NCBI GenBank assembly: GCA_964431805.1
Contig: CAYSKV010000002.1
Coordinates: forward strand, 8,025-72,024
From: an uncultured Gammaproteobacteria bacterium
GTDB taxonomy: Bacteria > Patescibacteriota > Patescibacteriia > Patescibacteriales > GWC2-42-12
Direction: 5' to 3'
Length of the DNA: 64,000 nucleotides
Shown here: one piece after another, positions 3,001 through 51,688 of the stretch
Numbering within the stretch: the stretch's first letter is position 1
How the letters are laid out: the number at the start of each line of letters is the position of its first letter
The notes under the pieces: model-generated
What the model was told of the DNA's origin: nothing
The model's database searches: none
What the model saw: the letters and a program-made list of their open reading frames with translations, nothing else
Program-made: the position numbers and the translations under genes

Positions 3001-4245
3001 TTCTATGGCTTCTCTAAACTTTTGATCAATTACACAATTAGTCGGTCCGGCTTTACTAGGGTCAGGACACATAGTTAATTCATTTAAAATATCATAATCT
3101 CCTCTAACTTTAAAACTAGCTTCAACTAACTTTTTGAATCTTTCTTCGGCTTCAGAAATACCTCCGCTTTCATTTTGCGCACTTGGATCGGTTAAATTGC
3201 TCGTTACTCTATTTGGGAAATTTGTAACTAAACCTTTTTTCATCCATTGGTCTACTAATTTGCCAATCAAAGTATTAACAAAAACATCAATAGCATCAGC
3301 CACGGCATTCCCAGTATAAGTAGAATAAGCTTGTTTTGAACTTCTTAAAGTATCAGTGCCATACTCTTTAATTAGTACAGCTGGTGTTTTTATATTGCCG
3401 GTAATAGGATCTGTTAAATTTTTATACCCTTCATTTTGCAATCTTTCCTTGGCTGCATTATCAACATCTACATTTATTGATTGAGTCATGCCGGTTTGTA
3501 AAGTTAAGGCTATACCTAAGTCGTTTGACCAAGGATTAAACATATCCTGAAACTTAGGTAAAAAATCTTTATCTTTTAAAGCTGTGTCCCAATTATCTAC
3601 TAATTTACTAAAAGTACAAGCCGGTGCTTTAGGTTTATACGTTCTTTGTAAACCCAAATTTATTTTTAACATAACCGAAGGATTGGGAGTACAAAGATTA
3701 AATTTAACAATACCATTTTGTTTGCCTAAAGTTTCTAAAAATGTCCCGGCCGCATTATCGGCAGTATTTTTTAAATATTCTCCCCAACTCTCGGTGATAA
3801 ACATAGGTTGTTGTCCTTTATCTCCGGTAGCTAAATAAGTAGCAGTATCATAAGCCAAAGTATTTAAAAAGTTTTTTAACATTGCTTTATAAGCTATAGC
3901 AGTTGAACTTTTGAGTTCTTCTAAGGCCTTATCTATAGCCCAAGTTTTAATTTGATCTAATGTTCTATCTACTCCGTTCATTTCTGTTATACATACTTCC
4001 TTCATGCCTGCGCCTAGAGTGGCGCTATCTATTACTTCAATTTTTAACGATCCAGAAGTTTCAGATTGTATACCACCTGCAATTATATCTTCAGTCGACA
4101 TTACTTGACAAGTTTTGTTGCTTCCAAAAAGAGTAGTGGATTGAGCAAGATCTCCAATAGCAGCTTTAACATATACTAATGGTATTAATATTAGAAATAA
4201 AATTATTATAAATAAAATAAATTTTTTAAATTGACAAATTTTCAT
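1..4245 (-). CDS. Very large secreted/cell-surface protein, N-terminal 1415 codons only (3' end lies beyond the left edge). It has an N-terminal membrane anchor/signal, a CBM/LamG-like jelly-roll segment and many C-x5-G-C cysteine-pair motifs
   Basis: Absent from the ORF track because no stop lies inside the window. The reverse complement from ATG at 4245 reads MKICQFKKFILFIIILFLILIPLVYVKAAIGDL. The frame (codons = plus positions 3k+1..3k+3) was open wherever I spot-translated: ~433-465 LCGIDAVGCEA, ~700-730 CSESAVGCE, ~1825-1857 KCSAEAVGCSQ, ~2013-2040 NCKAEEAGCE, ~2262-2294 TCQAEDQGCHA, 1-60 NGNFQTLANGPTDGWNGNSQ. The other frames hold only tiny ORFs over 4.2 kb. Confidence 0.8.
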   Translation of the reverse strand, partial: MKICQFKKFILFIIILFLILIPLVYVKAAIGDLAQSTTLFGSNKTCQVMSTEDIIAGGIQSETSGSLKIEVIDSATLGAGMKEVCITEMNGVDRTLDQIKTWAIDKALEELKSSTAIAYKAMLKNFLNTLAYDTATYLATGDKGQQPMFITESWGEYLKNTADNAAGTFLETLGKQNGIVKFNLCTPNPSVMLKINLGLQRTYKPKAPACTFSKLVDNWDTALKDKDFLPKFQDMFNPWSNDLGIALTLQTGMTQSINVDVDNAAKERLQNEGYKNLTDPITGNIKTPAVLIKEYGTDTLRSSKQAYSTYTGNAVADAIDVFVNTLIGKLVDQWMKKGLVTNFPNRVTSNLTDPSAQNESGGISEAEERFKKLVEASFKVRGDYDILNELTMCPDPSKAGPTNCVIDQKFREAIEKKLTVKQAIEQGYLNRNGIFGFTSDGLEPSYKEGYPYRSMIILRKFRILPVGWEVAAQKIKDQQGLVNGTKNLQDLVDCFSSAGTWCYGLVDPGWVLKAPQNYCKKEGAGAQILSEEFSGEGAGSSLNVLRNDAYCADEQSCVKERSDGACQLYGYCTEEKRTWDFNSKSCEPRENTCQTFKLGENSFSYLQNTLDYSLCNISNAGCKKYATSGSYDSSSKSVNWDQTNQIYFNKNAETCQAEDQGCHAFIRLTPDKGETYADIRNAGVNAAYNRFASTGLIYEKLLPDYLKGACYSYGSGGILDGTLKNDAPAACSKFVRNCKAEEAGCELYTSAADDSEVPAKVSPEDYCPAECVSYDTYVQKETAFDLSRDAYFIPKTAKKCSAEAVGCSQFTNLDEVSRGGEGIEYYTYLRQCLKKTGNESSCGEFYSWEGSDESGYQLKVESLKASGAEPFVTEDDASLCNEAIYNLSPSNPAYNVDCRQFYNRQGGLSYHLYRNTVSCSDDCHPYRKTLAVDDTALACKGGVWDSTEKSCVYMAIPGQGAKCSAGQNGCREYTGNMGNDIRNIFTDDFSGGTTANWTGVNGTTVAPSNEAINLDSNNKGNSLYISGGQFSASRLAGNSVITGKSYVLSFVAKASTPTFLNLSLTNSSGAKANFAPVSLTIDWQIFQTNLADLDHAITADEILLLAAGQNFYIDNITLTEIVDRYYLIKDSWRTPASCDSDQSGAPYALYMLGCGKYADRNNKTHYLKSFTELCSESAVGCELMIDTKNSTATSTETFVNSGTTKTVLADSFTYVVYDKDKLCSSQDKGCSLLGQAYEYEDTILYGDTYIKDNPDKYNTILCGIDAVGCEAFTYNEGEKYFKDPGDQVCEWRKATESGQTYNWYKKKVKRCGGNTGEVCLSDKDCTSGVTCQLETADNPCAFSDTKTLGLGGKGGLVNQPIPDDYGNWVGICSADNSGCTEYIDPISKFSTNIIFNGNFQTLANGPTDGWNGNSQ

Positions 4246-4302
4246 AAATATGATATATTTATATTTAATACTTGTTCTATAAAATTTTTAGGAGGTGTAC
4301 AG

Positions 4303-4635
4303 ATGAAAAAAATAACACAAATGTTAATCTTAATGATTATATTCTGTTTGGGATGTGCTGGACCTGCTGTTCAAATAGGTGCTAGTTTAGCTGGTGACTT
4401 TGCTGCTCATACTTTAAAATCAGTAAATTTTTCTTCTAAACCTAACATCGCTCTTGGTAAAGAAATTGAAAAATACTATTTTGGTAATCATGTAGTAGTA
4501 ATGAGAAATGGCCTTTACAAAAGTGCCCCAGCGACTATTTTTACAGCTTACAAAAATGGACAAGAAATTCGGAGTGTATGTTATGAAGAAAAAAATTCGG
4601 AAGACCGGATAGATATGAATAACTACAACAATTAA
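4303..4635 (+). CDS. Small putative lipoprotein (110 aa)
   Basis: ORF track 4231..4635, trimmed to the internal ATG at 4303. That ATG is preceded by the only strong SD seen in the window (aggaggtgtacagATG). The product starts MKKITQMLILMIIFCLGCAGP, a signal peptide with a lipobox-like L-G-C. Confidence 0.6.
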   Translation: MKKITQMLILMIIFCLGCAGPAVQIGASLAGDFAAHTLKSVNFSSKPNIALGKEIEKYYFGNHVVVMRNGLYKSAPATIFTAYKNGQEIRSVCYEEKNSEDRIDMNNYNN

Positions 4636-5289
4636 TTACTGCCCACTTAATGTTTCCTGAAAACTTTTTAAAAGATCTTCATCGCTAATTTTATCTAAAG
4701 TCGTTTTATCCATGCCTTGCTCTAAAAGTAGTTGCCGTAAACTCGCCGCGTCTAAATTTTTTAAAGCGCTTAATTGATCGCTGGTTAAACTAGCCGTTGT
4801 GCCTGACGAACTTGATGTAGCCGATGAACTAGCGCCGCCTAATTGGTTTAATAAAGTATTGGCCGTACTATCCGTAGCCGCGGTTTGGTCAACCGCAGTA
4901 TTATCTAATAATCCGCTAGTGCAAGTTTTACCTTGCGGACAATTAGGATCATAATCTTTAGCTATTTCATCTCCATCTTTAAATCCGTCGCCGTCAGTAT
5001 CTTCTAAATAAGGTGATGTTGCATAAATATTTAATTCATCATAATCGTTTAAACCATCCGCGTCAGTATCTTTAGCTTTTAAAGCCGCATCGCTATTTTC
5101 TTCTTCGGTAGCGACTTGATTTTGACTAGTCGTACTATTAAACGGACCATAAATATTATTTTTTAACTGCACCATCCATAAAATTACAACCAAAATAGCA
5201 AAAAGCGCCAAACCCGCAACCGCGATTTTTTGGTTTTTATCAATTGGGGAAGGCGTTGGTTTTTCATTAAATGATTCGTTTTCAGGCAT
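4636..5289 (-). CDS. Membrane-anchored protein with thrombospondin type-3-like Ca-binding repeats
   Basis: ORF track, 217 aa. It has an N-terminal TM helix (IAVAGLALFAILVVILWMV), two DxDxDGxxDxxE motifs (DTDADGLNDYDE, DTDGDGFKDGDE) and a Ser/Thr-rich tail. Its stop abuts the stop of the convergent lipoprotein gene (4635/4636). Confidence 0.6.
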   Translation of the reverse strand: MPENESFNEKPTPSPIDKNQKIAVAGLALFAILVVILWMVQLKNNIYGPFNSTTSQNQVATEEENSDAALKAKDTDADGLNDYDELNIYATSPYLEDTDGDGFKDGDEIAKDYDPNCPQGKTCTSGLLDNTAVDQTAATDSTANTLLNQLGGASSSATSSSSGTTASLTSDQLSALKNLDAASLRQLLLEQGMDKTTLDKISDEDLLKSFQETLSGQ

Positions 5290-5304
5290 AGGAACTATAA
5301 TTAA

Positions 5305-5411
5305 TTCTCAATTTCTAATTTCTAATTTCTAAACAATGCTTTAATGTATTAATTTTTAAACATTAAAAAATTGAAAATTGTTTGAAAATTGAAAATTGAA
5401 AATTGAAAATT
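5305..5411. repeat. Long AT-rich compound hairpin built from heptamer repeats ('empty' copy of the family that flanks the four-helix-bundle gene); likely pheT terminator
   Basis: The left arm 5306-5336 (tcaatttctaatttctaatttctaaacaat, 3x aatttct) and right arm 5377-5406 (attgtttgaaaattgaaaattgaaaattga, gaaaatt repeats) are imperfect reverse complements. An inner 8-bp stem is TTTAATGT (5340-5347) / ACATTAAA (5360-5367). The hairpin lies directly downstream of the pheT stop. Confidence 0.7.
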
Positions 5412-5414
5412 ATA

Positions 5415-7871
5415 CTAGAAGTCTCTTATTTTTGCCTCAAACTCTTTTTCTAAATGTTTTATTAATTTTTTCTGCACTTCATCAACTTCTTCTGAAGTTA
5501 ATGTCTTATCGGCTTGATATATAATATGAAAAGCTAAGCTCTTTTTCTCCGCGCCTAGCTTATCGCCTTGATAAACATCAAATAGTTCAACTTCTTTAAT
5601 TAAATCATTAAAGTTTACAATCTGTTTCTTGATATTATTATACAATATTTTTTTATTTACCACAAATGCTAAATCCCGGCTAACAAGAGGATATTTAGAC
5701 GGCTCTTTAAACTGCTTAATCGGGCCGTTTTTTACTTGATTTAATAGCTCGGGTAAACTTATTTCCGCTATAACCGCGGATTTTTTAATACCAAAAGACT
5801 GTTTAATATTTTTTTCAAGTTCAGCTACGAATCCAATATTAGAGCCACCTACCATAATTTTTGCCGAAGCAAATTTATTATATTTTGATACTTCAAATTC
5901 AAAAGCCGCTTCTAAATTTAAAGATTTTAATAAAAATTCTATCACGCCTTTTAATTTTCTGAATAAATCTTCATTCCCATCGCTAGCTAAAGCTATGGCT
6001 AAACGCTTTTCTTGAAAAGGCAATTTTTCGCGGCCGCTATCATCTTTTTTCATTTCTCCTACTTTATTTAAAAACACGCCGCCAATTTCATAAATAGCTA
6101 TTTCAGCTTCTTGCGCTTGATTTGTTTTTATATTTTCTAAAATACCCGGAATTAAACTCGGCCTTAAAATTACTAAATCTTCGGATAACGGATTAGCTAA
6201 TTTAATTACTGAATCAAATTTTAATTTTTCAGCTTGCTGCCGACTAAGAAAAGAATAATTATAGGTTTCAATAAATCCAGCGCCTAGCGACAAAATATTT
6301 TTAATTTTTCTAACCAATAATTTTTCTTCAATCATTAATGGTGGTATTAAATCTATTTTTGGTAGTTCGGCTTTTAAATTATTATAACCATAAATTCTTA
6401 CTACTTCCTCGGCCAAATCTTCCGGTAAACTTACGTCATGTACCGCGCGCCAACTCGGCACAGTTACTTTAAAATGATTACTGCTTACCTTTATTAAAAA
6501 ACCTAGCTTTTCTAAAATTTGTTTAACTTGTTTATTGGTAAACTCATAACCAATAAATTTATTTAGCCAATTTAAATCCAATTCAATCGGTCGTTGATCC
6601 ACCCTGTTAAATAATTTTGCCTTAGGCAAAATTCCGGCTTCGCCGGATTTAACAGGGTAAACTTTATATTTTTTTTCATCAACTAAATTTGTAGCTACAC
6701 TAGCCCCGGGACAAATTTGCAAAATTAATTCTACAGCGCGAGAAATTCCTAACTCACATAAATTCGGATCCAAACCTTTTTCAAAGCGCATAGAAGATTC
6801 TGTTCTAAGACTAAGTTTTTGCGCCGTTTTTCTTACCGAATTAAAATCAAAATTAGCCGCTTCTATTATTATAGAATTCGTCTGATCATTTATTTCGCTT
6901 GTTAGCCCGCCCATAACTCCGGCTACGGCCACAGGTTTTGTTTGATTGGCAATAACTAACATACCCGATTCTAACTTTCTTTTTACGCCATCAAGCGTTT
7001 CAATAATTTCGCCAGTTTTAGAGGTTCTAACTATAATTTTATCAATAAAATTTTTATCAAAAGCGTGTAAAGGCTGGCCTAATTCAAGCATCACATAATT
7101 AGTTACATCCACTATATTATTAATCGGACGCATGCCAGCGGCCGCTAAACGATCTTGCATCCATTTCGGTGAAGGCGCAATTTTTATGCCTTCAATACCA
7201 ATTCCCATATAGCGCGGACATAAAGAAAAATTTTCAATCTTAACATCAAATTTAAAAAATATTTTTTTAGCTTTTAGAATTCCTGCTTTAGGTTGATAAT
7301 TTTTAAACTTAGTATTTAAAAATGCCGAGATATCGCGCGCCATGCCGTAGTGCGACCATAAATCAGCGCGATGGGTAATGCTTTTATTATCAACTTCAAA
7401 AACAACATCATTCAAATTTAAATAATCGCTAAAATTCTGTCCGACTTTAGCTTTGTCTAAAATTAAAATGCCGTTATGATCAGAGCCTAAGCCCAATTCA
7501 TCTTCAGCGCAAAGCATGCCATTTGATTTTACTCCTCTAATTTCTGCTGGCTTTATTTCTAAGCCATTCGGTAAAATCGCTCCGACTAAAGCTACCGGAA
7601 CTAATTGATTAGGTTTTATATTCGGCGCGCCGCAAACGATTTCTAATTTTTCTTTTCCGATATCCACTAAAGCCAACCTTAATCTATCCGCATTCGGATG
7701 AGGTTTAACTTCTAAAATTTTTCCTACGATTACATTTTTATATTTCTCGGCCTGCGCTTCAACTTTTTCTACTTCTACCGTATGTAAAGTTAAACGTTTG
7801 CCCAATTCTAAAGCCGACACTTCTTTAGGAATATCAACAAAATCACGTAACCAATTTAAGGATAGATACAT
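5415..7871 (-). CDS. pheT: Phenylalanine--tRNA ligase beta subunit
   Basis: 818 aa, starting MYLSLNWLRDFV as is typical of PheT. The length and domain order fit PheT (tRNA-binding OB, B3_4, B5, C-terminal anticodon-binding-like). It lies downstream of pheS in the same orientation. Confidence 0.95.
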   Translation of the reverse strand: MYLSLNWLRDFVDIPKEVSALELGKRLTLHTVEVEKVEAQAEKYKNVIVGKILEVKPHPNADRLRLALVDIGKEKLEIVCGAPNIKPNQLVPVALVGAILPNGLEIKPAEIRGVKSNGMLCAEDELGLGSDHNGILILDKAKVGQNFSDYLNLNDVVFEVDNKSITHRADLWSHYGMARDISAFLNTKFKNYQPKAGILKAKKIFFKFDVKIENFSLCPRYMGIGIEGIKIAPSPKWMQDRLAAAGMRPINNIVDVTNYVMLELGQPLHAFDKNFIDKIIVRTSKTGEIIETLDGVKRKLESGMLVIANQTKPVAVAGVMGGLTSEINDQTNSIIIEAANFDFNSVRKTAQKLSLRTESSMRFEKGLDPNLCELGISRAVELILQICPGASVATNLVDEKKYKVYPVKSGEAGILPKAKLFNRVDQRPIELDLNWLNKFIGYEFTNKQVKQILEKLGFLIKVSSNHFKVTVPSWRAVHDVSLPEDLAEEVVRIYGYNNLKAELPKIDLIPPLMIEEKLLVRKIKNILSLGAGFIETYNYSFLSRQQAEKLKFDSVIKLANPLSEDLVILRPSLIPGILENIKTNQAQEAEIAIYEIGGVFLNKVGEMKKDDSGREKLPFQEKRLAIALASDGNEDLFRKLKGVIEFLLKSLNLEAAFEFEVSKYNKFASAKIMVGGSNIGFVAELEKNIKQSFGIKKSAVIAEISLPELLNQVKNGPIKQFKEPSKYPLVSRDLAFVVNKKILYNNIKKQIVNFNDLIKEVELFDVYQGDKLGAEKKSLAFHIIYQADKTLTSEEVDEVQKKLIKHLEKEFEAKIRDF
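6601..6658. repeat. Y-shaped palindromic mini-element, copy 1 (inside the pheT ORF)
   Basis: The outer 12-bp stem is ACCCTGTTAAAT (6601-6612) / ATTTAACAGGGT (6647-6658). The inner hairpins are AATTTTGCC-tta-GGCAAAATT (6613-6633) and CCGGC-ttc-GCCGG (6634-6646). Confidence 0.85.
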
Positions 7872-7880
7872 ATATTAATT

Positions 7881-7911
7881 TTCAATTTCTAATTTTTAAT
7901 TTTTAAACAAT
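7881..7911. repeat. Left arm of the heptamer-repeat inverted repeat flanking the four-helix-bundle gene
   Basis: The sequence ttcaatttctaatttttaatttttaaacaat is nearly identical to the left arm at 5306-5336. Its reverse complement matches 8291-8320 at most positions. Confidence 0.7.
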
Positions 7912-7922
7912 AATTTAATTAC

Positions 7923-8267
7923 TTAATTTTTTAAACTAGAACTTATTTTATTAAAAATAAGCGTTAATTCATGTGCTTCTTTCCATAAAAGTCTTAACTT
8001 TTCAACTTCTTCTTTATTGGTTTGGGCTATAAGTTCAAGCCAATATTTAGTTTCCTGAATTTCTTTTCTACAAATATATATTTTATTTTTAAAATCTTTT
8101 CTTGAAGCAGCTCCATTAGCTTCACAATAATTTGCACCTACGCTAGTTGCCGACCTGATTAATTGTTTGACTATACTTTCGTTTATTATATTCTTATTTA
8201 ATCTTATTAATAATTCGATTATTTCTTTACTAAACTTTTTTGTCCTCTCCTCTAAATCATACTGCAT
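7923..8267 (-). CDS. Four-helix-bundle protein ('23S rRNA intervening-sequence protein' / Avd-like family)
   Basis: 114 aa. The stretch SATSVGANYCEANGAASRKDFKNKIYICRKEIQETKYWLELI matches my recollection of the PF05635/TIGR02436 signature. The gene sits between pheS and pheT. Confidence 0.8.
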   Translation of the reverse strand: MQYDLEERTKKFSKEIIELLIRLNKNIINESIVKQLIRSATSVGANYCEANGAASRKDFKNKIYICRKEIQETKYWLELIAQTNKEEVEKLRLLWKEAHELTLIFNKISSSLKN

Positions 8268-8282
8268 AATTAGGAATTAATT

Positions 8283-8320
8283 CATTGAAAATTGTTTGAA
8301 AATTAGAAATTGAAAATTTT
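8283..8320. repeat. Right arm of the heptamer-repeat inverted repeat flanking the four-helix-bundle gene
   Basis: The sequence cattgaaaattgtttgaaaattagaaattgaaaatttt is nearly identical to the right arm at 5369-5411. Confidence 0.7.
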
Positions 8321-8328
8321 AAATTATT

Positions 8329-9384
8329 CTAGAATTGTTTTAAAAATTTTAAATCACCGCTATGAAATAACCTAATATCATTAATGCCATATTTTAACAT
8401 AGCTAATCTATCTAAACCGTAACCAAAAGCAAAACCTTGATATTTTTTCGGATCAATACCGCCAGCGCGTAAAACGTTAGGATGTACCATGCCGCAACCA
8501 ACAATCTCTAACCAACCCGTTCCTTTACATAAACGACAACCCTTGCCACCGCATAAAAAACAGGAATATTCGCCATTAGATCCAGGTTCAACAAAAGGAT
8601 AAAATTTCGGACGCATTCTAAATTCAGTATCAGGGCCGAATAATTTTTTACCTAAAACTTCTAAAATAGCCTTTAAATTACTAAAATTTATATTTTTATC
8701 TATCATTAAACCTTCTAACTGATAAAAAGTATGTTCGTGGCGAACGTCGGTCGCTTCATTTCTAAAACAACGGCCGGGCACAATGCATTTTATTGGCGCG
8801 CCATATTTTTGCATGGCCCTTATCTGCATAGGCGAAGTTTGCGTGCGCATTAACATATCATACTCGCCTTTAGCATTTTTCTTGTCCTCCGTAGCTTTAG
8901 CGTAGGAGGGATGATCAATATAGAAAGTATCTTGCATGTCGCGAGCTGGATGAAAGGGAGGGATATTTAAAGCCGTAAAATTATAATAATCGCTCTCTAA
9001 TTCCGGTCCATCAAGCACCATAAAACCAAGCGAAGAAAATAAATCTTCTATTTCGTTTTGTAAAATCGTTATAGGATGCAAATGTCCTTGCTTAATTTCT
9101 ACGCCAGGTAAAGTCGCATCAACATAATCAGTCTTAGTATTTTCCCCTAAACTAATTTTAACTTCTTCAAATCTATTTATTAATTCAATTTTTATTTCAT
9201 TAGCTAATCTACCTAAAGTCTTTTTTTCTTCCGCGCTTAAATCAGCCACGCTTCTTAAAATTTTTGTCAGCTCGCCTTTTCTACCAAGATATTTTATTTC
9301 TAAATCACGCAAAATCTCTAGCTTTTTAACTTCAGCTAGTTGATTTAAAATTTCTTGCTTTAGTTTTTGTAATTTAGATTCCAT
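8329..9384 (-). CDS. pheS: Phenylalanine--tRNA ligase alpha subunit
   Basis: ORF track 8329..9417. I prefer the ATG at 9384 (MESKLQKLKQEIL) because the first 11 codons of the longer ORF overlap the upstream gene. Class II motifs are present: FRNEATDVRHEHTFYQLEG and GFAFGYGLDRLAMLKYGI. Confidence 0.93.
   Translation of the reverse strand: MESKLQKLKQEILNQLAEVKKLEILRDLEIKYLGRKGELTKILRSVADLSAEEKKTLGRLANEIKIELINRFEEVKISLGENTKTDYVDATLPGVEIKQGHLHPITILQNEIEDLFSSLGFMVLDGPELESDYYNFTALNIPPFHPARDMQDTFYIDHPSYAKATEDKKNAKGEYDMLMRTQTSPMQIRAMQKYGAPIKCIVPGRCFRNEATDVRHEHTFYQLEGLMIDKNINFSNLKAILEVLGKKLFGPDTEFRMRPKFYPFVEPGSNGEYSCFLCGGKGCRLCKGTGWLEIVGCGMVHPNVLRAGGIDPKKYQGFAFGYGLDRLAMLKYGINDIRLFHSGDLKFLKQF
8886..8909. 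repeat. Short palindromic element (CCTCC..GGAGG, 'AKATEDK' family) inside the pheS ORF
   Basis: The element is cctccgtagctttagcgtaggagg. An 18-nt core, tcctccgtagctttagcg (8885-8902), is identical to 49266-49283 in valS. It is translated as HPSYAKATEDKK. Confidence 0.8.
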
Positions 9385-9817
9385 TTTGATTAATATTATT
9401 TTCTTCTTGAATATCATTAGTGATTTTAGTCTTACTATAACTTAAAAGAAAAAATTCTAAGGCGGATAAGCCAATTATTAAAATAGCTAAATTTAACCAA
9501 CTAAATAAATTTCGTGAAAGCAAAAATAAAGCTGCTATAATAAAACCGGCGAAAAAAAATGACTGGCGAAAAGCGACTTTAACCGTGTTAATAACTAATT
9601 CATGACGAAAAATTATAAATCTAATAATAAAACCGATAATGGCGGTAGCGCCGCTGATTAATAAAAATAAAGATAAATAAAATAGAAAAAAACCAACGCT
9701 ATTAGTAGTTTCCGGGTCAACCGTAAAAACAATATAACCAAACATAACGGCGCATAGCGCCGTCATGAATGACATAACTAATAAATATAAACGTAAAGAC
9801 ATGGGATTAATTTTCAA
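9374..9817 (-). CDS. Small integral membrane protein, unknown function
   Basis: 147 aa with about four hydrophobic helices and no family I recognise. Its stop overlaps the preferred pheS start by 11 nt. Confidence 0.6.
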   Translation of the reverse strand: MKINPMSLRLYLLVMSFMTALCAVMFGYIVFTVDPETTNSVGFFLFYLSLFLLISGATAIIGFIIRFIIFRHELVINTVKVAFRQSFFFAGFIIAALFLLSRNLFSWLNLAILIIGLSALEFFLLSYSKTKITNDIQEENNINQNGI

Positions 9818-10011: not shown

Positions 10012-12974
10012 CAACCTCTAAACTCACAAATTTCCTTAAAATCGCACCAAGCGCATAAGACTCCGGGGTTAGCTTTAAATTTACCCTGATTTATTTCTTT
10101 AATAGTATCAACAATCTTAACTTTTATTTTTTCTAAATCTTTGGCCGAGCCAATAAATTCAACCTCGCTATTATCATCAAGATAATAAAAAGCCAAGGTT
10201 TTAACTTCTTGTTTAAATAATTCCTGAACGGCTAATTGATAAATTAATAACTGCTCTTTATCTTTAAACTCAAGCTTATCTTTAGGTTTACCGGTTTTAT
10301 AATCAACTAGCTTTAAACCTTCTCCGACTTTATCAATCCGGTCAATCGCGCCGCGCACTACATACGAATCTTTACCGTCGGTAATTTTAAGATTAAAGCC
10401 TTTTTCTAGAAATAATGCCGATGGCCAGTTATCTTTATATTTTTCATAAAAACCTTTTAAAATTTCCTGACCTTGTTTTTTTCTTTCCTGCTTTTTCTTT
10501 TTAGATTCAAACCAATCATCAACCCAACTTTCTTCATAAAATTTTAAAATTTCTTCAAAAGTAATATTATCTTTTTTCGCCTTAACTTTATTATCGAATA
10601 AACCGGCCTGGCCTAAGCCCTTTTTCTCGTTAAGTAAAATAAATATTTTTTGCAAAGTTGAATGCAGGGTTTTACCGAAAGAAAATTGCTCTTTACCCAT
10701 AGTAGGAATTTTTAAAATATGGGCAAAACGATATTGATAGGGGCAGGCCGAGTAAGCCGCTAATTGCGAATAAGAAAAGTGAGTAGGAATGGCTATGTCT
10801 TTATCATCTTTAACATTCTTAACTTTTTTAGAAATTTTTAATTTATCATTTACTAATGATTTATTTTCTTCTAACGGTAATTTCTCGTTTCCAATCATAC
10901 CTAACTCTATTAAAAATCTTGATGGTTTCTTTTTAATTTTTCCGCCATAATCCGCCGCCCAAGAAAAATATAAACCAGTTTTAGCTCGCGTCATTGCCAC
11001 ATAAAATAAACGTCGTTCTTCTTCTAAATGCACGTCGCCAACGGTCAAAATTTCTTTAATTAAAGCGTCGGGTAAACTAATTTGCTCATTTCTCGCTATG
11101 GTCGGAAAGCGCTTATCCACTAAATTAGCTATAAAAACATATTTAAATTCTAAGCCTTTAGCGCCATGAACAGTTAAAATTCTAACGGCCTCAGGGCCAA
11201 CTTCTAAATCAGATTCTAAAGCGCCTTCTTCACCGGCTTCTATTTCTAAATTTAATTCAGCTAAAAAGGCTCTAACGCTTTTATCATCTGAAGAACTTTC
11301 AAAATCTTTAACTCGTTTTAAAAATTGATTTAATAAATTTATAGTTTCAAGATTTTTTTGCTCGCCTAAACGACTTAAATATTTTAAATAACCGCTGTCA
11401 TTCATAAAAGCTAAAAAAACTTCGCTGATTGGTTTTTCTCGAGCTAAAATTGAATGTTTAGAAATTAAAGTTAAAACAGCTTTTACTTTTTTTTCTAAAT
11501 CAGCCGAAAATTTTAAAACACTGCCGCTATTTATAACTTCAAAAAGCGACCAGGCCTTTTTATTAGCTAAATGATTAAAATTTACTAATTCTTCGGAAGT
11601 AAAATTAAAAATCGGTAAACTTAATATGCGCCATAAAGCTAAACTTTCATGATAATTATCTAATAATTTTAAATAAGCTACTACGTCCATAATTATCGGT
11701 TTAGCGTAAAGACCGCGCGAAGAACCGAAAATAAAAGGCAGCCCGCGGCGATCAAATTCAGCCATAAAATCATTAGCCGAATCGTTAGCGCGCACTAAAA
11801 CCGCAAAGTCATTTAGACTAACGTTTTTATTTTTATTCTTTAGTTCAATTATTTTATTTGCCACTAATTTTACTTCTCCATCTAAATCAGCGCCTTGTAA
11901 AACTTCAATTACGCCGGCGCCAGAATTTTCAGCGATTAACTTTTTACTTAAATTTTTATCTTTTTTAAATTGCCATTCTAATCGGTTCGGATTGTTTTGC
12001 TTAATAAATTCATAAGACAAATCTAAAATATTTTGTTGGCTGCGATAATTTTTAGTTAAAACTATTTTTTCAGCTTTAGGATAATCTTTGGAAAATTGCA
12101 AAATATTAGACATGGAAGCGCCGCGAAAACGATAAATTGATTGATCGTCATCGCCTACGACCGTTAGATTATTAGTCGGCTCAGCTAAAAGTTTTACTAA
12201 TTCATATTGCGCCCAATTAGTATCCTGAAATTCGTCTACTAAAATATATTTAAACTGCTTTCTATATTTTTCTAAAATCGCTGGGCGTTCGCGAAATAAT
12301 TTTAAGGTGTAGTTTATTAAGTCGCCAAAATCTATGGCGCTATTATCTAATAATAATTGCTGATAAACATGATAAGCATTAGCGATTTCATTAACGCGCG
12401 CAACTTCCTGCTCTACTATTGTCTTGTCAGAAACGCCGGATAACATACCGTCTAAATTTTGCTTTAACCCATCGGCATAATTTAAATAATCGGCCGGCGA
12501 AATATCTTCATCTTTAGCGCGAGAAAAATGTTTTAAGAGAGCGCTAATAAATTTAGTCGGATTGCCTAAGGGGCGATAATAATCTAATTCAAACTTATCT
12601 AAATTCTTTTTTATTAACGCCCATTGCTCAAACTCATTTAACAATTTAAAATCGCCTGGTAGTCCTAAGCTTAAACCATGCTCTTTTAAAATCCGCTCGG
12701 CAAAACTATGAAAAGTTGAAACCCATAAATCAAAATAACCAATCGGCAATAGCGACCCAACCCGATCTTCCATTTCCGCGGCCGCTTTTTCCGTAAAAGT
12801 TAAAGCTAAAACTTCGTCAGATTTAGCTAGGCCTTGTTCAATTAAATAAGCGATGCGCTGGGTAATAACCGTAGTTTTACCGGTACCTGCTCCAGCCACA
12901 ATTAAAAGCGGTCCGTTTTTATGTAAAACTGCTTTTAGTTGTTCTTTATTAAGATTTTCTAATAGATTATTCAT
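10011..12974 (-). CDS. UvrD/PcrA-type superfamily 1 helicase fused to a C-terminal PD-(D/E)XK (AddB/Cas4-like, Cys-cluster) nuclease
   Basis: 987 aa. The N-terminus carries AGAGTGKT (Walker A), DEFQDT and other UvrD-like blocks. The C-terminus carries SACPYQY ... DRIDK ... DYKTGK ... CAWCDFKEIC, consistent with a RecB-family nuclease with 4-Cys ligands. Confidence 0.85.
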   Translation of the reverse strand: MNNLLENLNKEQLKAVLHKNGPLLIVAGAGTGKTTVITQRIAYLIEQGLAKSDEVLALTFTEKAAAEMEDRVGSLLPIGYFDLWVSTFHSFAERILKEHGLSLGLPGDFKLLNEFEQWALIKKNLDKFELDYYRPLGNPTKFISALLKHFSRAKDEDISPADYLNYADGLKQNLDGMLSGVSDKTIVEQEVARVNEIANAYHVYQQLLLDNSAIDFGDLINYTLKLFRERPAILEKYRKQFKYILVDEFQDTNWAQYELVKLLAEPTNNLTVVGDDDQSIYRFRGASMSNILQFSKDYPKAEKIVLTKNYRSQQNILDLSYEFIKQNNPNRLEWQFKKDKNLSKKLIAENSGAGVIEVLQGADLDGEVKLVANKIIELKNKNKNVSLNDFAVLVRANDSANDFMAEFDRRGLPFIFGSSRGLYAKPIIMDVVAYLKLLDNYHESLALWRILSLPIFNFTSEELVNFNHLANKKAWSLFEVINSGSVLKFSADLEKKVKAVLTLISKHSILAREKPISEVFLAFMNDSGYLKYLSRLGEQKNLETINLLNQFLKRVKDFESSSDDKSVRAFLAELNLEIEAGEEGALESDLEVGPEAVRILTVHGAKGLEFKYVFIANLVDKRFPTIARNEQISLPDALIKEILTVGDVHLEEERRLFYVAMTRAKTGLYFSWAADYGGKIKKKPSRFLIELGMIGNEKLPLEENKSLVNDKLKISKKVKNVKDDKDIAIPTHFSYSQLAAYSACPYQYRFAHILKIPTMGKEQFSFGKTLHSTLQKIFILLNEKKGLGQAGLFDNKVKAKKDNITFEEILKFYEESWVDDWFESKKKKQERKKQGQEILKGFYEKYKDNWPSALFLEKGFNLKITDGKDSYVVRGAIDRIDKVGEGLKLVDYKTGKPKDKLEFKDKEQLLIYQLAVQELFKQEVKTLAFYYLDDNSEVEFIGSAKDLEKIKVKIVDTIKEINQGKFKANPGVLCAWCDFKEICEFRG

Positions 12975-12986
12975 GAATTAAGTTTA

Positions 12987-15900
12987 TTAACGATAAAAAA
13001 TAACATCAGAACCACTTGCAAAATCGCTTGTTAAATATCTAATAATCACAACACCTGAGCCACCATCACCGCCATATCCAGGAGTTGCGCCAGCGCATCC
13101 ACCACCACCACCACCAGTATTTAGCGTACCATCTTCTCCATTTCCTGAACCATTACTATTTCCATAACCATCGCCGCCGCCATGCGTGCCAAGGCCGTTA
13201 GTTTTAGTTCCTGCCGTCCATAAAACTCCGCCGCCGCCGCCAGCGTAACCAACTTCAACGCCACTAATAGAATTATTTAACCCCGCGCCTCCATCAGGGG
13301 CATGGTCTTTATCAGGTGGCGTTTGCCCAACAGCGCCCGCTCCGCCGCCAGCACCAGATGGATAAGGCGATTGATGAAATCCTCCATTACCTGACCCATT
13401 ATTACCTTGAGAACCATATACGGCTAAACCACCAAAAGTGTCAGCGCCACCATGAGTTGAACCGCCACCGCCAGAAGCTCCATCTTTACCATTATTTCCA
13501 TTACCACCACCACCGCCGCCGCCATAAGCAGTAATATTATCAAATACGCTATTCGTACCGTTAGCTCCCCCTGCGGAATTATTTCCAGCCACTCCTAAAC
13601 CTCCATCGCCGACTGTTATATTATATGTTTGAGGAGAAACAGCATGCTCAGATTCATAAACATAGCCACCGCCACCGCCACCGCCAGCAGCTCCACCGCC
13701 ACCGCCACCAACAACTAAAACTTCAACATTGCCAGCTTTAGGGAATGTAATTGATCCATTGGAAGTAAAAGTATGAATTGTATAATCACCGTCAATTGTA
13801 ATATCTCCTCCAGCTAAACTATCTGAAGTTTTTGTTTTAAAAATAACTTGACTAGAAATATTAAAATCACTAGTTAAATATTTAATAATAACAATACCTG
13901 AACCGCCGTTGCCACCATTAGAATTAGAGACTCCTGAGCTAGTTGATCCCCCTCCTCCACCACCGCCAGTATTAGCAATTCCGTCGCTACCACTTTGGCC
14001 TACAAGGCCTCCATCGCCACCTCCACCAATCCCGCCTATGCCGCCATTGCTAGATTTACCACCTCCGCCTCCACCACCAGCGTAATAAACAGAAGAACCA
14101 CTTATGGAGTAAGCTAAACCATCGCCACCGTTACCACCCACAGAACTAGTTCTAGTTTGCCCAACAGAATTAGCACCGCCACCTCCGGAACCAGCGCGGT
14201 ATGTTGTAGTATTAGTTAGTGCGTCACCGCCATTATTACCTTGCCCAGATGTTCCTTGTGAGGCTGCAGTGGATTGGCTATATGAATTTGCTGCGCCACC
14301 GCCAGAACCTCCGTCTGCGCCCTTGTTTACGCCAGTTGGATCATCATTATCTGAACCGCCACCGCCACCTCCGATAGCTATTAATGAGTCAAAAATACTA
14401 TTTTCACCATTACTGCCTTTGTTGGAAATTAACGTGGCACCATTACCACCATTTCCAACAGTAACAGTCTTAACTCCAGTAGTTACTGCATAGGAGGCAT
14501 TATAAATTAAACCGCCTGCTCCTCCTCCACCACCGCCATCTCCATTACCACCTAATTCAGCGTGTCCTCCTCCACCACCGCCAGCAACAACTAATACTTC
14601 AACATTTCCACTTTTAGGAAATGTAATAGTTCCGTCAGAAGTAAAAGTATGAATTGTATAGTCACCGTCATAAGTTACATTACCTCCAGTAAGAGCAGAG
14701 GGGTTCGTGCGAAAAATTATTCTTCTACTTAAAGACGTATCATCAAAATCATTATTTAAATATCTAATAATAACTATACCTGAACCGCCTTTACCTCCAG
14801 CTTGAAAACCGGCTCCGCCGCCACCTCCACCCGAACCAGTTCCGTCTGTTCCAGCCGTTCCAGCCGTATCTCTCCAACCGCCATGTCCTCCAATTCCGCT
14901 TCCTCCATCACCGCCACCGCCGCCGTCATAACCTCCTGCTCCACCGCCAGCCGCATAATAAGTCGGCGTTCCGCTTATGCTATTACTTGTTCCATCGCCG
15001 CCATTACCTCCTTGATTGCCAACTCCATTAGCGCCAATAGATCCTGAACCGCCGCCGCCGCCACCACCTAAATTAGAGGCAACTGCTCCTGTCCCTCCAT
15101 TATTTCCTTGAGAAGGCACAGTTGCTGGAGTATTGCCGGAACCGCCTACCCCGCTAAAACATTGTCCGCCGCCGCCTGAACCGCCGTTGTTTCCAGGAGT
15201 GGCACCACTACCACTTGGACCGCCACCAGCTCCGCCGCCAGCCGCAGTAATAGTAGAAAAAATACTAGCTTCACCATTACTCGCCGAGCCTGAACTACCA
15301 GGCCCGCCAGATCCGCCATCGCCAACTGTTATATTATATTCTTGAGCAGAAACGGGAAAAGATGAAACATATCTATAGCCGCCTGCTCCGCCACCACCAG
15401 CTGCATTTCCACCGCCACCACCGCCGCCACCAACCACTAAAACATCTACATTGCCAGCTTTATTAAATGTTATTGTCCCATCAGAAATAAAAGTATGAAC
15501 GGTATAATTACCATAATGACTTATTGTTCCGCCATCAGGATGAGTAGAATTATAAGCATAAGCTATTTGATCGCCAAACTCAAAACGCAAAACATGATTA
15601 CCGGCTTTTTTAGTAAAATTAATAACTTTGCCGTTGCCGGCGCAAAACCAATTTGGATAAAAAATAACATCACCAGCTAAAATTTGTGGATCTTTTTTTT
15701 CTCCGTCGCAAAATAATGACACAAACTCATCATCATCTATTGTCGCCTGATCATTAGGAATTATTTTTAAATCAGCCGTGCCTTTAGTAGAAAATTCAAC
15801 CTCCCAATTTTCTCCTTGTTGAGGATGCGAATGAATATTTAAAACAACTACTTCTATCGTCGGATCTAAAACCACCGGATATTTGGCTTTATCCAACCAT

Positions 15901-16511: not shown

Positions 16512-16513
16512 TT

Positions 16514-16897
16514 GTCATTGCGAGCGTAAGCGAAGCAATCTCACGAACTATAAATCTTCGCTTAAATCTCGCCATTTTAGATTAACTTTTTTTATTAATT
16601 CTATTTTCTTTTTTCTTGAACCGCTTTTTATTTGTTTTTCTCTAGCAATCGCATCATTAATATTATTAAACATCTCATAATAAACTAATTTATCTGCGTT
16701 ATATTTAGCAGTAAAACTTTGTTTATTTTCTTTTGTTTTATGATAATAATTTCTATTTAATAAATTATTACTTACCCCTGTATATAAAACTGAATTCCAT
16801 CTATTGGTGTTTATATAAACATAATATTGTTTTTCCTCCTTCATATTATCAATTATTATTCGTGGGATTGCTTCGTCGTTTCACTCCTCGCAATGAC
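16514..16897. mobile_element. GIY-YIG nuclease mini-element bounded by ~31-36-bp terminal inverted repeats
   Basis: The left end is gtcattgcgagcgtaagcgaagcaatctcac (16514-16544). The right end, 16862-16897, is the reverse complement of gtcattgcgaggagtgaaacgacgaagcaatcccac. Each end contains an ATTGC..GCAAT hairpin, and the only cargo is the 98-aa GIY-YIG ORF. Confidence 0.6.
16548..16844 (-). CDS. GIY-YIG nuclease family protein (COG2827-like)
   Basis: 98 aa. The sequence YYVYINTNRWNSVLYTGVSNNLLNRNYYH ... KLVYYEMFNNINDAIAREKQIKSGSRKKKIELI fits the small stand-alone GIY-YIG (URI) domain. Confidence 0.8.
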   Translation of the reverse strand: MKEEKQYYVYINTNRWNSVLYTGVSNNLLNRNYYHKTKENKQSFTAKYNADKLVYYEMFNNINDAIAREKQIKSGSRKKKIELIKKVNLKWRDLSEDL

Positions 16898-16910
16898 ATA
16901 AAACCAAAAT

Positions 16911-49006: not shown

Positions 49007-51688
49007 TTATTTACTCTTTAAACTTTTTAATTCTGCCTGCCAATTTTTCAATTTTTCTTTTTCTTTTTTTACTATTTCAGCCGGCGCTTTATTCGTAAAT
49101 TCCTTATTAGCTAGTCTAACTTTAGCCGAAGCAATTATTTTTTCTAAATTAGCAATTTCTTTTTCTATTCTTATTTTTTCTTTGGCCACATCAACCGCGC
49201 CTAATAAATATATTTCAATATCACCAACAGCAACGTAAATTGCATCAGATAATTTTTCTCCTTTATCCTCCGTAGCTTTAGCGAAGGGGGGCTTTTCTAA
49301 AACTTTAAGTTCATTAATGCCTGTTCGCAAATTTTTGATTAAATGCGCTTGTGATTCAATTAATTCTTTTTGATTGCCCGCATAAATTACTGCTTCTATT
49401 TTTTTAGCTGGTTCAACATTATTTTCAGCGCGCGCATTACGAATTGCAATAATAATTTCTTGAATAGTTTTTGTTTCTATAAAATCAGAACTCTTATTAA
49501 ATTGTTCCAATATTTCTTTATAATTATCTAGCTGCGGATATTTTTCTGTTAATAATAAAGTTTTATTCTCCATTTCTTGCCAAATTTTCTCAGTTACAAA
49601 TGGAATAAAAGGATGCCATAATTTTAATAAATCATTTAAAATTACTGATAATATTTGTCCCTTAGAAGAATTCTTTTCGAACTTACACACCTCTAAGTAC
49701 CAATCCGCTAAATCATCCCAAGTAAATCCTCTTAATATTTCTTTCGCTTGTGAAAAACGATAATTATTTAAATCATCGTCAACTGTCCATATCAAATTTC
49801 TCGTCTCAAATAAAATCCATTTATCAAACAAAGTTAAATCATTTAAATCAAATTTGTAATTAGTAGTTTGTAATTCGTAATTCGTAATTATATATCTTGA
49901 AATATTCCATAATTTATTAACCATATTTCTCGCTCCCTCAACTTTCTCTTCATAAAATTTTGAGTCATTGCCCGGAGCAATGCCGCCAATTAAACTTAAA
50001 CGCAAAGCATCGGTGCCAAATTTAGAAATAACTTCAATCGGATCAATATTATTACCTGATGATTTAGAAAATTTCTTGCCCGACTCGCTTCTTAACATGC
50101 CATGAATATAAACATCTCTAAACGGAATTTGATCTAAAGCATAAGTCGACATTAAAATCATTCTAGCCATCCAGAAAAATAAAATTTCATAACCCATCTG
50201 CATCCAGCTCGTTGGATAAAAATTTTGTTCCCAATTTTTTTCCGGCCAACCTAAAGTAGAAAATGTCCAAAGCCCGGAAGAAAACCAAGTGTCTAAAGTG
50301 TCTTCATCTTGAACCCAATCTTTTCCATCTGGCGCATCAGAACCGACAAATATCTCCTCTCCTTTATACCAAACTGGAATTCTATGCCCCCACCAAATTT
50401 GGCGAGAAATACACCAATCACGTAAATTATCTATCCAATTTAAATAAACTTTTTCAAACCTTTCTGGTGTAATTTTTACTTTTTGATCTTTATCTCCATT
50501 ATGCCCATTCGTAACCGCTTCACGCATTAAATCTTTTAAACTTTTATCTTTGTTAGGAATCTTTTTATTAACATCAATAAACCACTGCGTCATTGGTAAA
50601 ACTTCAATCGCGTCGCTAAAGCGATCGGAAGTGCCGACGTTTTGTATTATGTCTTCTTCTTTTTCTAATAATTTTTCTTTTTTAAGCCAGGCAACAAATT
50701 TTTCTCGCGCTTCTAAAACCGAGAGGCCAGAATACTCTTTCCCGGCGGCTTCAGCCATTTTACCGTTTTGATCAATTACTGAAATTAAAGCGATTGGATC
50801 GTTTTTGGCTTTCTGTTTTTCATACATTTCAAAATCAACCATACTATGCGCCGGTGTAACTCCGACCGCGCCGGTGCCAAAAGTTTCATCAACCGCTTCG
50901 TCAGCAATAATTTTTATTTCTAAAGGTTTAACCGCGCCGACATCAACCGTAAAAATTTGTCCAATATATTTTTTATACCTTTTGTCGTTAGGATTTACCG
51001 CCACGGCCGTATCGCCAAGTTTTGTTTCCGGTCGAGTTGTGGCTACGGCGATGGGAAAATCTTTAGCATATTTAAATGTATAAAATTTAGCCGGCCTTTC
51101 TACATGCACGAGTTCGTCATCAGAACAGGTTGATTGCCCCCTAACCGACCAATTAACTACGCGATTACCTCTATATATTAATCCATCGTTGTACATTTTT
51201 ATAAATACTTCATTAACCGCCTGACTTCTTTTTTCATCAAAAGTATAAGCTAGACGCGACCAATCGCAACTAGTTCCCATTTTTTTAATTTGTTTTAAAA
51301 TTGTGGATTTAGATTCTTCGGCATACTCGCGAATTTTTTCTAACAATTTTTCACGACCTAATTCTTGACGCGGATTTTTTATGCCCTGCTCTACTAATAC
51401 TTTTTCTACTTTAGCCTGCGTAGCTACGGCCGCATGATCAGTACCAGGAAGTAATAATACTTTTTTACCATTCATTCTCTGATAACGAGCCATTATATCC
51501 ATTAAAGAATTTTCCAAAGCATGTCCAAGATGAAGCACGCCAGTAACATTCGGCGGCGGCATCATTATAGAGTATGGATCACCCTCTAAATTATCCGGAT
51601 TAAAAAAACCCGATTTCTCCCATTTGGTGTAAATCGCATCTTCATAATCAGCCGAATTATATGTTTTTGGTAATTCCTTATTTAACAT
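49007..51688 (-). CDS. valS: Valine--tRNA ligase
   Basis: 893 aa with PPNVTGVLHLGHAL (HIGH), KFSKSSGN (KMSKS), an editing-domain insertion and a C-terminal coiled coil. Confidence 0.96.
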   Translation of the reverse strand: MLNKELPKTYNSADYEDAIYTKWEKSGFFNPDNLEGDPYSIMMPPPNVTGVLHLGHALENSLMDIMARYQRMNGKKVLLLPGTDHAAVATQAKVEKVLVEQGIKNPRQELGREKLLEKIREYAEESKSTILKQIKKMGTSCDWSRLAYTFDEKRSQAVNEVFIKMYNDGLIYRGNRVVNWSVRGQSTCSDDELVHVERPAKFYTFKYAKDFPIAVATTRPETKLGDTAVAVNPNDKRYKKYIGQIFTVDVGAVKPLEIKIIADEAVDETFGTGAVGVTPAHSMVDFEMYEKQKAKNDPIALISVIDQNGKMAEAAGKEYSGLSVLEAREKFVAWLKKEKLLEKEEDIIQNVGTSDRFSDAIEVLPMTQWFIDVNKKIPNKDKSLKDLMREAVTNGHNGDKDQKVKITPERFEKVYLNWIDNLRDWCISRQIWWGHRIPVWYKGEEIFVGSDAPDGKDWVQDEDTLDTWFSSGLWTFSTLGWPEKNWEQNFYPTSWMQMGYEILFFWMARMILMSTYALDQIPFRDVYIHGMLRSESGKKFSKSSGNNIDPIEVISKFGTDALRLSLIGGIAPGNDSKFYEEKVEGARNMVNKLWNISRYIITNYELQTTNYKFDLNDLTLFDKWILFETRNLIWTVDDDLNNYRFSQAKEILRGFTWDDLADWYLEVCKFEKNSSKGQILSVILNDLLKLWHPFIPFVTEKIWQEMENKTLLLTEKYPQLDNYKEILEQFNKSSDFIETKTIQEIIIAIRNARAENNVEPAKKIEAVIYAGNQKELIESQAHLIKNLRTGINELKVLEKPPFAKATEDKGEKLSDAIYVAVGDIEIYLLGAVDVAKEKIRIEKEIANLEKIIASAKVRLANKEFTNKAPAEIVKKEKEKLKNWQAELKSLKSK
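49267..49290. repeat. Short palindromic element ('AKATEDK' family) inside the valS ORF
   Basis: The element is cctccgtagctttagcgaaggggg. The 18-nt core 49266-49283 is identical to 8885-8902 in pheS. It is translated as EKPPFAKATEDKG in the same frame as in pheS. Confidence 0.8.
49854..49888. repeat. Five tandem heptamers inside the valS ORF
   Basis: The array is ttgtaat tagtagt ttgtaat tcgtaat tcgtaat, translated on the minus strand as ITNYELQTTNYKF. It resembles the intergenic heptamer arrays (gaaaatt / ttgataa / ttgtaaa) at 5377-5411, 8291-8320 and 9880-9935. Confidence 0.65.

Follow-up and report, generated by a model that had tools for sequence, protein, structure and literature searches.

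In-frame insertions of a 30-nt hairpin-forming repeat, probably a selfish mobile unit, in pheS and valS of a Patescibacteria genome

How do the genes of two different aminoacyl-tRNA synthetases come to carry the same short palindrome, read as the same peptide? The question is raised by a 64,000-nt stretch of DNA (hereafter, the window; contig CAYSKV010000002.1) whose nearest named relatives are Candidatus Falkowbacteria and other Patescibacteria. An initial annotation of the window had noted an identical 18-mer in pheS and valS and had likened it to a Rickettsia palindromic element (RPE) colonizing tolerant surface loops of essential enzymes. We found that this 18-mer is the core of a longer DNA repeat (hereafter, the unit), which is probably mobile and selfish.

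Seamless insertions in pheS and valS

The 18-mer TCCTCCGTAGCTTTAGCG (plus strand) matched the window exactly twice, at 8885-8902 and 49266-49283, as the initial annotation had stated, and no third match appeared when up to three mismatches were allowed. In a shuffle control, 0.02 matches were expected, and none of 100 shuffles attained two. With internally repetitive genes excluded, the 18-mer was the sole G+C-rich (56%) dispersed repeat of at least 16 nt in the window; the remaining dispersed 16- to 17-mers had a G+C content of at most 38%, nearly all of at most 25%. Translation of the minus-strand open reading frames (ORFs) confirmed that the 18-mer is read in the same frame in both genes, giving AKATEDK (in the context HPSYAKATEDKK in PheS and KPPFAKATEDKG in ValS). 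The arms were likewise present as described, with CCTCC opposite GGAGG in the pheS copy and opposite GGGGG in the valS copy. The 18 nt proved to be a correct core but not the full extent of the repeat: the whole unit is 30 nt long and reads TCCTCCTT-CGCTAAAGCTACGGAGGA-CAAG on the minus strand of the window (Table 1).

The borders of the unit were set by comparing filled and empty sites. Among the PheS proteins compared, PSYAKATEDK was found only in the window protein and in one 96%-identical protein; proteins with listed identities of 85-93% read FYIDH-KNAKGEYD, being 10 residues shorter and without the insert. The pheS gene of locus L119 (91.5% identical DNA) lacked exactly 30 nt, leaving the empty site GATCAT^AAAAAT, and in the window and in L120, CCCTCCTACGCTAAAGCTACGGAGGACAAG stood between GATCAT and AAAAAT. 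The borders of this junction could not be shifted, and no target-site duplication was present. In line with this, all 43 of the 43 nearest ValS proteins were without the 10 residues, and orthologous valS DNA from L121 and L122 (87% identical) showed a 30-nt gap with the empty site TTAGAA^AA(G/A)GGT, leaving an ambiguity of at most 3 nt in the border. The pheS and valS copies are seamless in-frame 30-nt insertions of one hairpin-forming DNA repeat. The initial annotation was therefore right to take it for a DNA repeat rather than a conserved peptide.

In PheS, the unit falls within the class II core (catalytic) domain, in the loop between ..DTFYID and LMRTQTSP. The initial annotation had described this loop as variable in length, which was borne out: of the solved PheRS structures, the two closest ones aligned (4P71 and 2RHQ) have a gap where the insert lies, and the loop is repeatedly occupied by short repeats in related genomes of the candidate phyla radiation (CPR; Patescibacteria). 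An AlphaFold2 model of PheS, built from a shallow alignment, had a mean pLDDT of 56.6, falling below 50 around the insert, and was left unused. In ValS, the unit occupies approximately residues 799-808, in the linker from the Anticodon_1 domain (622-767) to the C-terminal coiled-coil arm (833-891).

Table 1. Host genes and copies of the unit in the window, and in-frame copies in other loci. The valS unit is set in the register of the pheS copy.
Feature	Position or locus	Strand	Remark
pheS host gene	8329..9417	minus	Pfam-confirmed; annotated start probably 9384
pheS 30-nt palindromic unit	8881..8910	minus	CCCTCCTACGCTAAAGCTACGGAGGACAAG, in frame = PSYAKATEDK
valS host gene	49007..51688	minus	Pfam-confirmed
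valS 30-nt palindromic unit	49262..49291	minus	CCCCCCTTCGCTAAAGCTACGGAGGATAAA, in frame = PPFAKATEDK; left arm degraded
In-frame AKATEDK copy	L001		AlaRS
In-frame AKATEDK copy	L024		TGT
In-frame AKATEDK copy	L033		UDP-glucose dehydrogenase
In-frame AKATEDK copy	L050		FtsK
In-frame AKATEDK copy	L078		PilB
In-frame AKATEDK copy	L097		DnaX
In-frame AKATEDK copy	L063		Ser/Thr kinase
In-frame AKATEDK copy	L074		helicase
In-frame AKATEDK copy	L019		glycosyltransferase

The PheS loop has been occupied more than once. The pheS gene of L135 carries two units, one at the junction used in the window, with compensatory changes, and the other six codons downstream of the first; that of L136 carries one unit, at a junction one codon upstream of the window's; and further copies were found in the PheS loop of proteins P0057 and P0078. 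The PheS loop is thus a hotspot in related CPR genomes. Furthermore, the empty pheS gene of L119 is as close to that of the window as the filled gene of L120 (91.1% identity), and a relative merely 76% identical carries the unit at the identical junction. This pattern implies precise excision or site-precise reinsertion, and either of these argues for an enzyme-driven seamless mechanism rather than random indels. Reoccupation of one junction in the loop beside empty close relatives points to an active and precise insertion/excision chemistry that is open to study.

The same loop, after DTFYI.., also holds other families of short repeats, in PheS proteins P0010, P0021, P0025, P0027, P0035, P0040-P0052, P0055, and P0103; these include an NPLNPPLQGG-type repeat, present in three tandem copies in P0055, and a TRTNADK-type insert. 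In CPR genomes, this loop thus serves as a general sink for miniature repeats.

Spread and hairpin anatomy of the unit

The distribution of the repeat was determined by scanning 185,579 species genomes (one per species; 596 Gb) for the exact sequence CGCTAAAGCTACGGAGGA. As the initial annotation had anticipated, the 18-mer was not confined to the two genes: it occurred in at least 118 loci, mostly intergenic and from many phyla, whereas a random 18-mer would be expected approximately 17 times in 596 Gb. Some 95% of these loci contained the same 30-nt unit, including the left arm, which lies outside the query. A position matrix built from 117 occurrences in many phyla had high information solely from -8 to +21 around the query and fell to approximately 0 bits immediately beyond both borders, and the borders so defined are those set independently by the filled and empty pheS genes. 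The consensus reads TCCTCCTT CGCTAAAGCTAC GGAGGA CAAG, with which the pheS unit of the window agrees at 28 of 30 positions.

Among the matches listed, the 18-mer was found in Patescibacteria (Nomura-, Davies-, Doudna-, Taga-, and Saccharibacteria, Gracilibacteria, Peribacteria, and Paceibacterota), in Bacteroidota, Verrucomicrobiota/Kiritimatiellia, and Planctomycetota, in Gamma-, Alpha-, and Deltaproteobacteria and Bdellovibrionales, and in Acidobacteriota, Cloacimonadota, and Sumerlaeota. Carriers with closed genomes include Lacibacter sp. MH-610 (CP116002) and the metagenome-assembled chromosomes OY969416, OY970359, and OZ246408. The 30-nt unit was near-identical in at least seven phyla. 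Additional variant copies were present in approximately 25-30 of the 118 loci, each of which spans at most 8 kb, pointing to a multicopy and diverse unit family. Viral contigs yielded just four matches, so phages are no obvious vector.

Crude gene calls, used to sort approximately 120 copies, placed about two thirds of them in intergenic DNA; both copies in the window are coding. The orientation of the copies to flanking genes was unbiased (23 co-oriented, 16 antisense, 11 convergent, and 8 divergent), which speaks against RNA signals with a set direction, terminators among them, and the terminator reading was dropped on this ground. In-frame AKATEDK copies were also found in bona fide genes of other phyla (Table 1). 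Some copies have conspicuous neighbors. In L031, L127, L046, L128, and L130, units or unit-flanked cassettes abut exact tRNA 3' ends, the unit-flanked cassettes being accompanied by an approximately 21-nt duplication of the tRNA end, GCGGAGAGGGAGGGATTCGA. In L114 (approximately 2820-2900), the true start of leuS has a diverged copy of approximately 28 nt (ATGGAAAAATATAATCAC..), and a unit lies between the two, with its GGAGGA 9 nt upstream of the ATG in the manner of a Shine-Dalgarno sequence.

The consensus folds into a hairpin whose outer stem is 6 bp long (TCCTCC/GGAGGA); next come a 3x3 internal loop with a T-A pair at its center and an inner GC/GC (or GCT/AGC) stem closed by an A-rich loop. 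The free energy of the fold was -10.4 kcal/mol for the sense RNA (z -3.4) and -13.4 kcal/mol for the antisense RNA (z -4.0). In an ungapped alignment of 48 distinct variants, compensatory changes were observed in 9 of 10 pairs and 90.6% of cells were paired, values matched by none of 500 shuffles; slid controls were 35-49% paired. Compensatory variants of the arms included TCCGCC/GGCGGA, GTCACC/GGTGAC, GCCTGC/GCAGGC, and GCTAAAGC versus GCCAAGGC. Positions T7, C9, T18, and C20 are unpaired and conserved. In valS, the stem is weakened by C.A mismatches on the mRNA strand, which are G.U wobbles on the other strand.

On the opposite strand, the unit reads CT-TGTC-CTCCGTAGC-TTTA-GCGAAGGAG-GA, which divides into a tag, an imperfect stem of 9 bp, a loop of 4 nt, and a short tail. 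Weight matrix frequencies at +18/+19 gave the tag as TGTC in roughly 60-70%, CGTC in approximately 15%, and TATC in approximately 24% of units. The GA tail is paired with the final two bases of the tag, and the stem CTCCGTAGC/GCGAAGGAG starts with C-G and then T-A and has two conserved G.A (or Y.Y) mismatches. Four of the six reading frames through the unit are open, giving SSFAKATEDK, PPSLKLRRT, VLRSFSEGG, and SSVALAKE. Translations of the unit in its various frames recur as spurious peptides in metagenome annotations (SFAKATEDK, LKLRRT, RSFSEGG, and VALAKE).

Within the window, only tRNAs scored above threshold against Rfam, and the unit was unmatched. In nine unit-rich loci searched at E <= 1, no Rfam family fell over a unit except for one weak ARRPOF match over the L045 unit (E 0.43; 21.5 bits against a threshold of 127.2), which was taken as chance.

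Origin of the copies and a candidate mobilizing enzyme

We consider it likely that the sequence at each of the two sites is one copy of a mobile DNA palindrome, discrete and 30 nt in length, of the type of repetitive extragenic palindromes (REPs) and RPEs, a selfish element lodged in tolerant parts of enzymes. Such a unit would have entered pheS and valS seamlessly, leaving no target duplication, and its copies would persist in the variable loop of PheS and the interdomain linker of ValS. Tolerance there would follow from its length of 30 nt, from a reading frame free of stop codons, and from the hydrophilic character of the ten residues encoded, P-S/P-Y/F-A-K-A-T-E-D-K; copies elsewhere in genes were presumably purged by selection. 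The unit would move as a folded single-stranded DNA hairpin, recognized in trans by a structure-specific nuclease or transposase. Hairpin-based movement has been proposed for REPs and their REP-associated tyrosine transposases (RAYTs) and has been demonstrated for IS200/IS605 elements.

Several observations weigh against this reading. The flanks hold no conserved target of the kind that IS200/IS605 elements use, information being approximately 0 bits at -9 to -25 and from +22 onward. No transposase or nuclease consistently adjoins the units across loci, and a Y1 transposase was not found in the window or the locus fragments, although the IS200 TnpA query was approximate and makes this a weak test. 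The exact 18-mer is scarce within genomes, with one to four loci per assembly among the matches listed and two in the 64-kb window; classical REPs occur in hundreds of copies. The near-identity of the 30-nt unit across phyla is unexplained and is atypical for REPs. Finally, the stems of both window copies are weakened by C.A mismatches, and these copies may be inert or decaying relics.

The alternative that the unit is a functional RNA or DNA signal under selection, such as an mRNA stabilizer, a pause site, a Shine-Dalgarno/anti-Shine-Dalgarno device, or a protein-binding site, draws on the same hairpin. Its stem is preserved by compensatory changes, one of which, from T-A to C-G, separates the window and L135 units at the same pheS junction. 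Moreover, the TCCTCC/GGAGGA arms resemble anti-Shine-Dalgarno and Shine-Dalgarno sequences, and GGAGGA lies just upstream of a start codon in L011 and L114. We nevertheless regard this alternative as improbable, given that the copies are unbiased in orientation relative to transcription, match no Rfam family, are patchily present among near-identical orthologues, have degraded stems in the window, and sit in unrelated flanking contexts.

Two further explanations can be set aside almost entirely. A convergent or conserved protein motif would account for the same frame and peptide in two aminoacyl-tRNA synthetases; however, it is refuted by the filled and empty pheS and valS genes, whose orthologues are without the insert, and most copies elsewhere are noncoding or are read in other frames (LKLRRT, VLRSFSEGG, and SSVALAKE). 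Identity of the 18 nt by chance is excluded by the window shuffles, by the G+C content of the repeat, and by the excess in the genome scan. An assembly or sequencing artifact, for example, a chimeric read or an adapter, might be suspected, since nearly all matches come from metagenome-assembled genomes. Yet the filled pheS allele is also present in an independent assembly from the European Nucleotide Archive (L120), the full unit is found in at least one isolate chromosome, that of Lacibacter sp. MH-610, the unit is in frame in essential genes, and its variants carry compensatory changes.

The only recurrent mobile-type neighbor of the units was a gene for a small GIY-YIG nuclease. Of the Pfam families in small ORFs no more than 400 nt from a unit, GIY-YIG was the commonest (5 of 118), and no Y1 transposase was among the top neighbor families. 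All-versus-all clustering of ORFs near units recovered only a four-member GIY-YIG cluster and shared housekeeping genes, and phmmer searches with the four-helix-bundle and GIY-YIG proteins of the window gave only sporadic matches. A GIY-YIG gene of 80-86 codons stands between two inverted units with their tags outward in L046, L128, and L130/L132 (all from Bacteroidota), the whole cassette lying at a tRNA 3' end with the approximately 21-nt duplication noted above; in L107, a GIY-YIG gene lies 29 nt from a unit. GIY-YIG genes between inverted TGTC-ATTGCG-type hairpins, tags outward, are also present in the window, L119, and L120.

These arrangements raise the possibility, which we hold to be doubtful, that the unit is a terminal repeat or nonautonomous derivative of a GIY-YIG cassette whose protein mobilizes TGTC/CGTC-tagged hairpins in a RAYT-like role. 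It would fill a gap, as a transposase is not known for the CGTC-tagged REPs (PMC3733652). Against it, a GIY-YIG gene adjoins a unit in only 2 of approximately 120 unbiased loci, the cassettes with two inverted units represent one lineage at one tRNA site, five of eight inverted unit pairs in metagenomes are without a GIY-YIG gene, the window's own GIY-YIG gene belongs with a different hairpin family, and co-location could reflect shared safe intergenic sites. With co-location in a single lineage as the link to the unit, a partnership of GIY-YIG proteins with tagged hairpins in general seems rather doubtful. The fuller proposal, in which small free-standing GIY-YIG nucleases would seamlessly cut and paste the 30-nt TGTC/CGTC-tagged hairpins of many phyla, excising them precisely and reinserting them at exact sites, is unlikely. 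If true, it would reveal an unrecognized REP-nuclease partnership, answer what mobilizes CGTC REPs and RPE-4/-6-type elements, and explain the spread of the unit between phyla and into essential genes.

The GIY-YIG cassette of the window (16513-16898) consists of a 98-codon gene (16548-16844, minus strand) between inverted TGTC-tagged hairpins with their tags outward, TGTCATTGCGAGGAG..GAAGCAATCCC at 16864-16898 and GAGATTGCTTCGC..GCTCGCAATGACA at 16513-16542, which have the look of CGTC-1-type REPs. Three GIY-YIG genes in L119 and L120 are bracketed by hairpins in the same way. Just upstream of pheS in L136 (1436-1463) lies a perfect palindrome, TGTCATTGCGGGCCCCGGGCCGCAATGACA, with tags on both sides, which may represent the ends of the GIY-YIG cassette in an "empty" state. 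Between pheS and pheT, the window carries a 23S_rRNA_IVP (four-helix-bundle) gene (7923-8267, minus strand; whole cassette, 7877-8318) flanked by 47-nt inverted A+T-rich arms (7877-7923 and 8272-8318) built of heptamer repeats. In L119 and L120, the same intergenic slot holds GIY-YIG cassettes in place of this gene, suggesting that small selfish gene cassettes use the slot as a landing pad. Elsewhere, the window contains large internally repetitive coding sequence at 12900-15600 and 20000-31000, one region with Gly-rich GGTGGCGG-type repeats and the other with long 80-99% identical repeats; the G+C content is 0.40-0.43 in these two regions and 0.31-0.37 elsewhere in the window.

Comparison with known repeat systems

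At 30 nt, with 9 of 10 pairs covarying, the unit is an imperfect palindrome of 20-40 nt that folds into a stem-loop, as REPs are. Two superfamilies of REPs, one with a GTAG tag and one with a CGTC tag, were distinguished by Di Nocera, De Gregorio, and Rocco (2013; PMC3733652). According to that study, a CGTC REP comprises a tag (CGTC, TGTC, or CCTC), an 8- to 9-bp stem with complementary A/T at its first and second positions, a 4- to 5-nt loop, and a short tail with the consensus CCA. Such REPs occur in several phyla and include the Rickettsia elements RPE-4 and RPE-6 and the Neisseria dRS3; intragenic copies are documented, some of them in tRNA synthetase genes. The unit resembles them in its terminal CGTC/TGTC-type tag, stem, loop (4 nt, TTTA/TAAA), and short tail, in being mostly intergenic but also in frame within genes, tRNA synthetase genes included, in occurring in several phyla, and in having no known dedicated transposase. 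The RPE analogy drawn in the initial annotation is thus apt, as RPE-4 and RPE-6 share this architecture.

The unit departs from the CGTC REPs in other respects. Its first pairs are C-G and T-A, contrary to the A/T-first stem rule, and the stem has two conserved mismatches; its tail is GA and pairs with the tag, whereas CCA is unpaired; its copies mostly stand singly and not as head-to-head dimers; and the same 30-nt sequence is near-identical in at least seven phyla. The unit peptides (ATEDK, LKLRRT, and SFSEGG) were absent from the supplementary text of PMC3733652, including its list of intragenic REPs. Searches of full-text literature returned nothing relevant on the strings of the unit, on REPs in Patescibacteria, or on GIY-YIG proteins with REPs. 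The CGTC architecture fits but the stem rule, tail, and peptides do not; we therefore class the unit as a new family, REP/RPE-like and working in the manner of CGTC REPs, and do not count it as an established member of their superfamily. A different hairpin, TGTC-ATTGCGGGC..CCCGCAAT, lies at 5409-5433 of L120 within a UvrD-like helicase gene (3030-6290), in agreement with the published observation that REPs are often found in repair helicase genes.

The GTAG REPs with RAYTs, such as the REP/BIME elements of Escherichia coli and the Pseudomonas REPINs (REP doublets forming hairpins), share with the unit the 20- to 40-nt imperfect palindrome, a 4-nt tag, and insertion without target duplication, and the layout of the unit resembles GTAG-3 (an outer stem, unpaired trinucleotides, and then GC-NNNN-GC). 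However, the tag of the unit is not GTAG, it forms no REPIN dimers, it is not species specific, its apparent copy number per genome is much lower, and no RAYT was found in the window or the locus fragments with the approximate IS200 TnpA query. The miniature elements derived from IS200/IS605 (palindrome-associated transposable elements) are likewise hairpin based and are inserted and excised seamlessly without target duplication, but they have two different ends and a fixed 4- to 5-nt target 5' of the insertion, whereas the unit is a single hairpin; an origin as such an element was rejected for want of a fixed tetra- or pentanucleotide target in the flanks.

Other classes were discarded. A miniature inverted-repeat transposable element (50-500 bp, with terminal inverted repeats and a target-site duplication) does not suit a 30-nt unit whose pheS junction has no duplication. 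A CRISPR repeat does not suit copies that are mostly solitary, the spacers of the few tandem arrays (L075, L089, and L104) being mutually repeating. A fragment derived from rRNA or tmRNA was also considered and is held to be less likely, on an informal comparison of sequences.

The Rickettsia palindromic element RPE-1 is approximately 100-150 bp long, is known only from Rickettsia, and is inserted in frame in genes; it was reportedly described by Ogata et al. in 2000. Like the unit, it is selfish palindromic DNA in frame in essential genes, at tolerant surface or variable positions. Membership in RPE-1 was rejected, since the in-frame insertion fits but the length (30 nt) and the taxon (Patescibacteria) do not. 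In-frame colonization of essential genes by selfish palindromes is thus already known from Rickettsia RPEs and some REPs. To this, the present case adds a CPR genome, a clean contrast of filled with empty alleles, and a unit as short as 30 nt. Units of this kind account for many of the small, lineage-specific insertions seen in CPR proteins. What is new is the family itself, its near-identity across phyla, and the possible GIY-YIG link; the near-identity calls for a horizontally spread mobilizing enzyme or a widely conserved host recognition factor.

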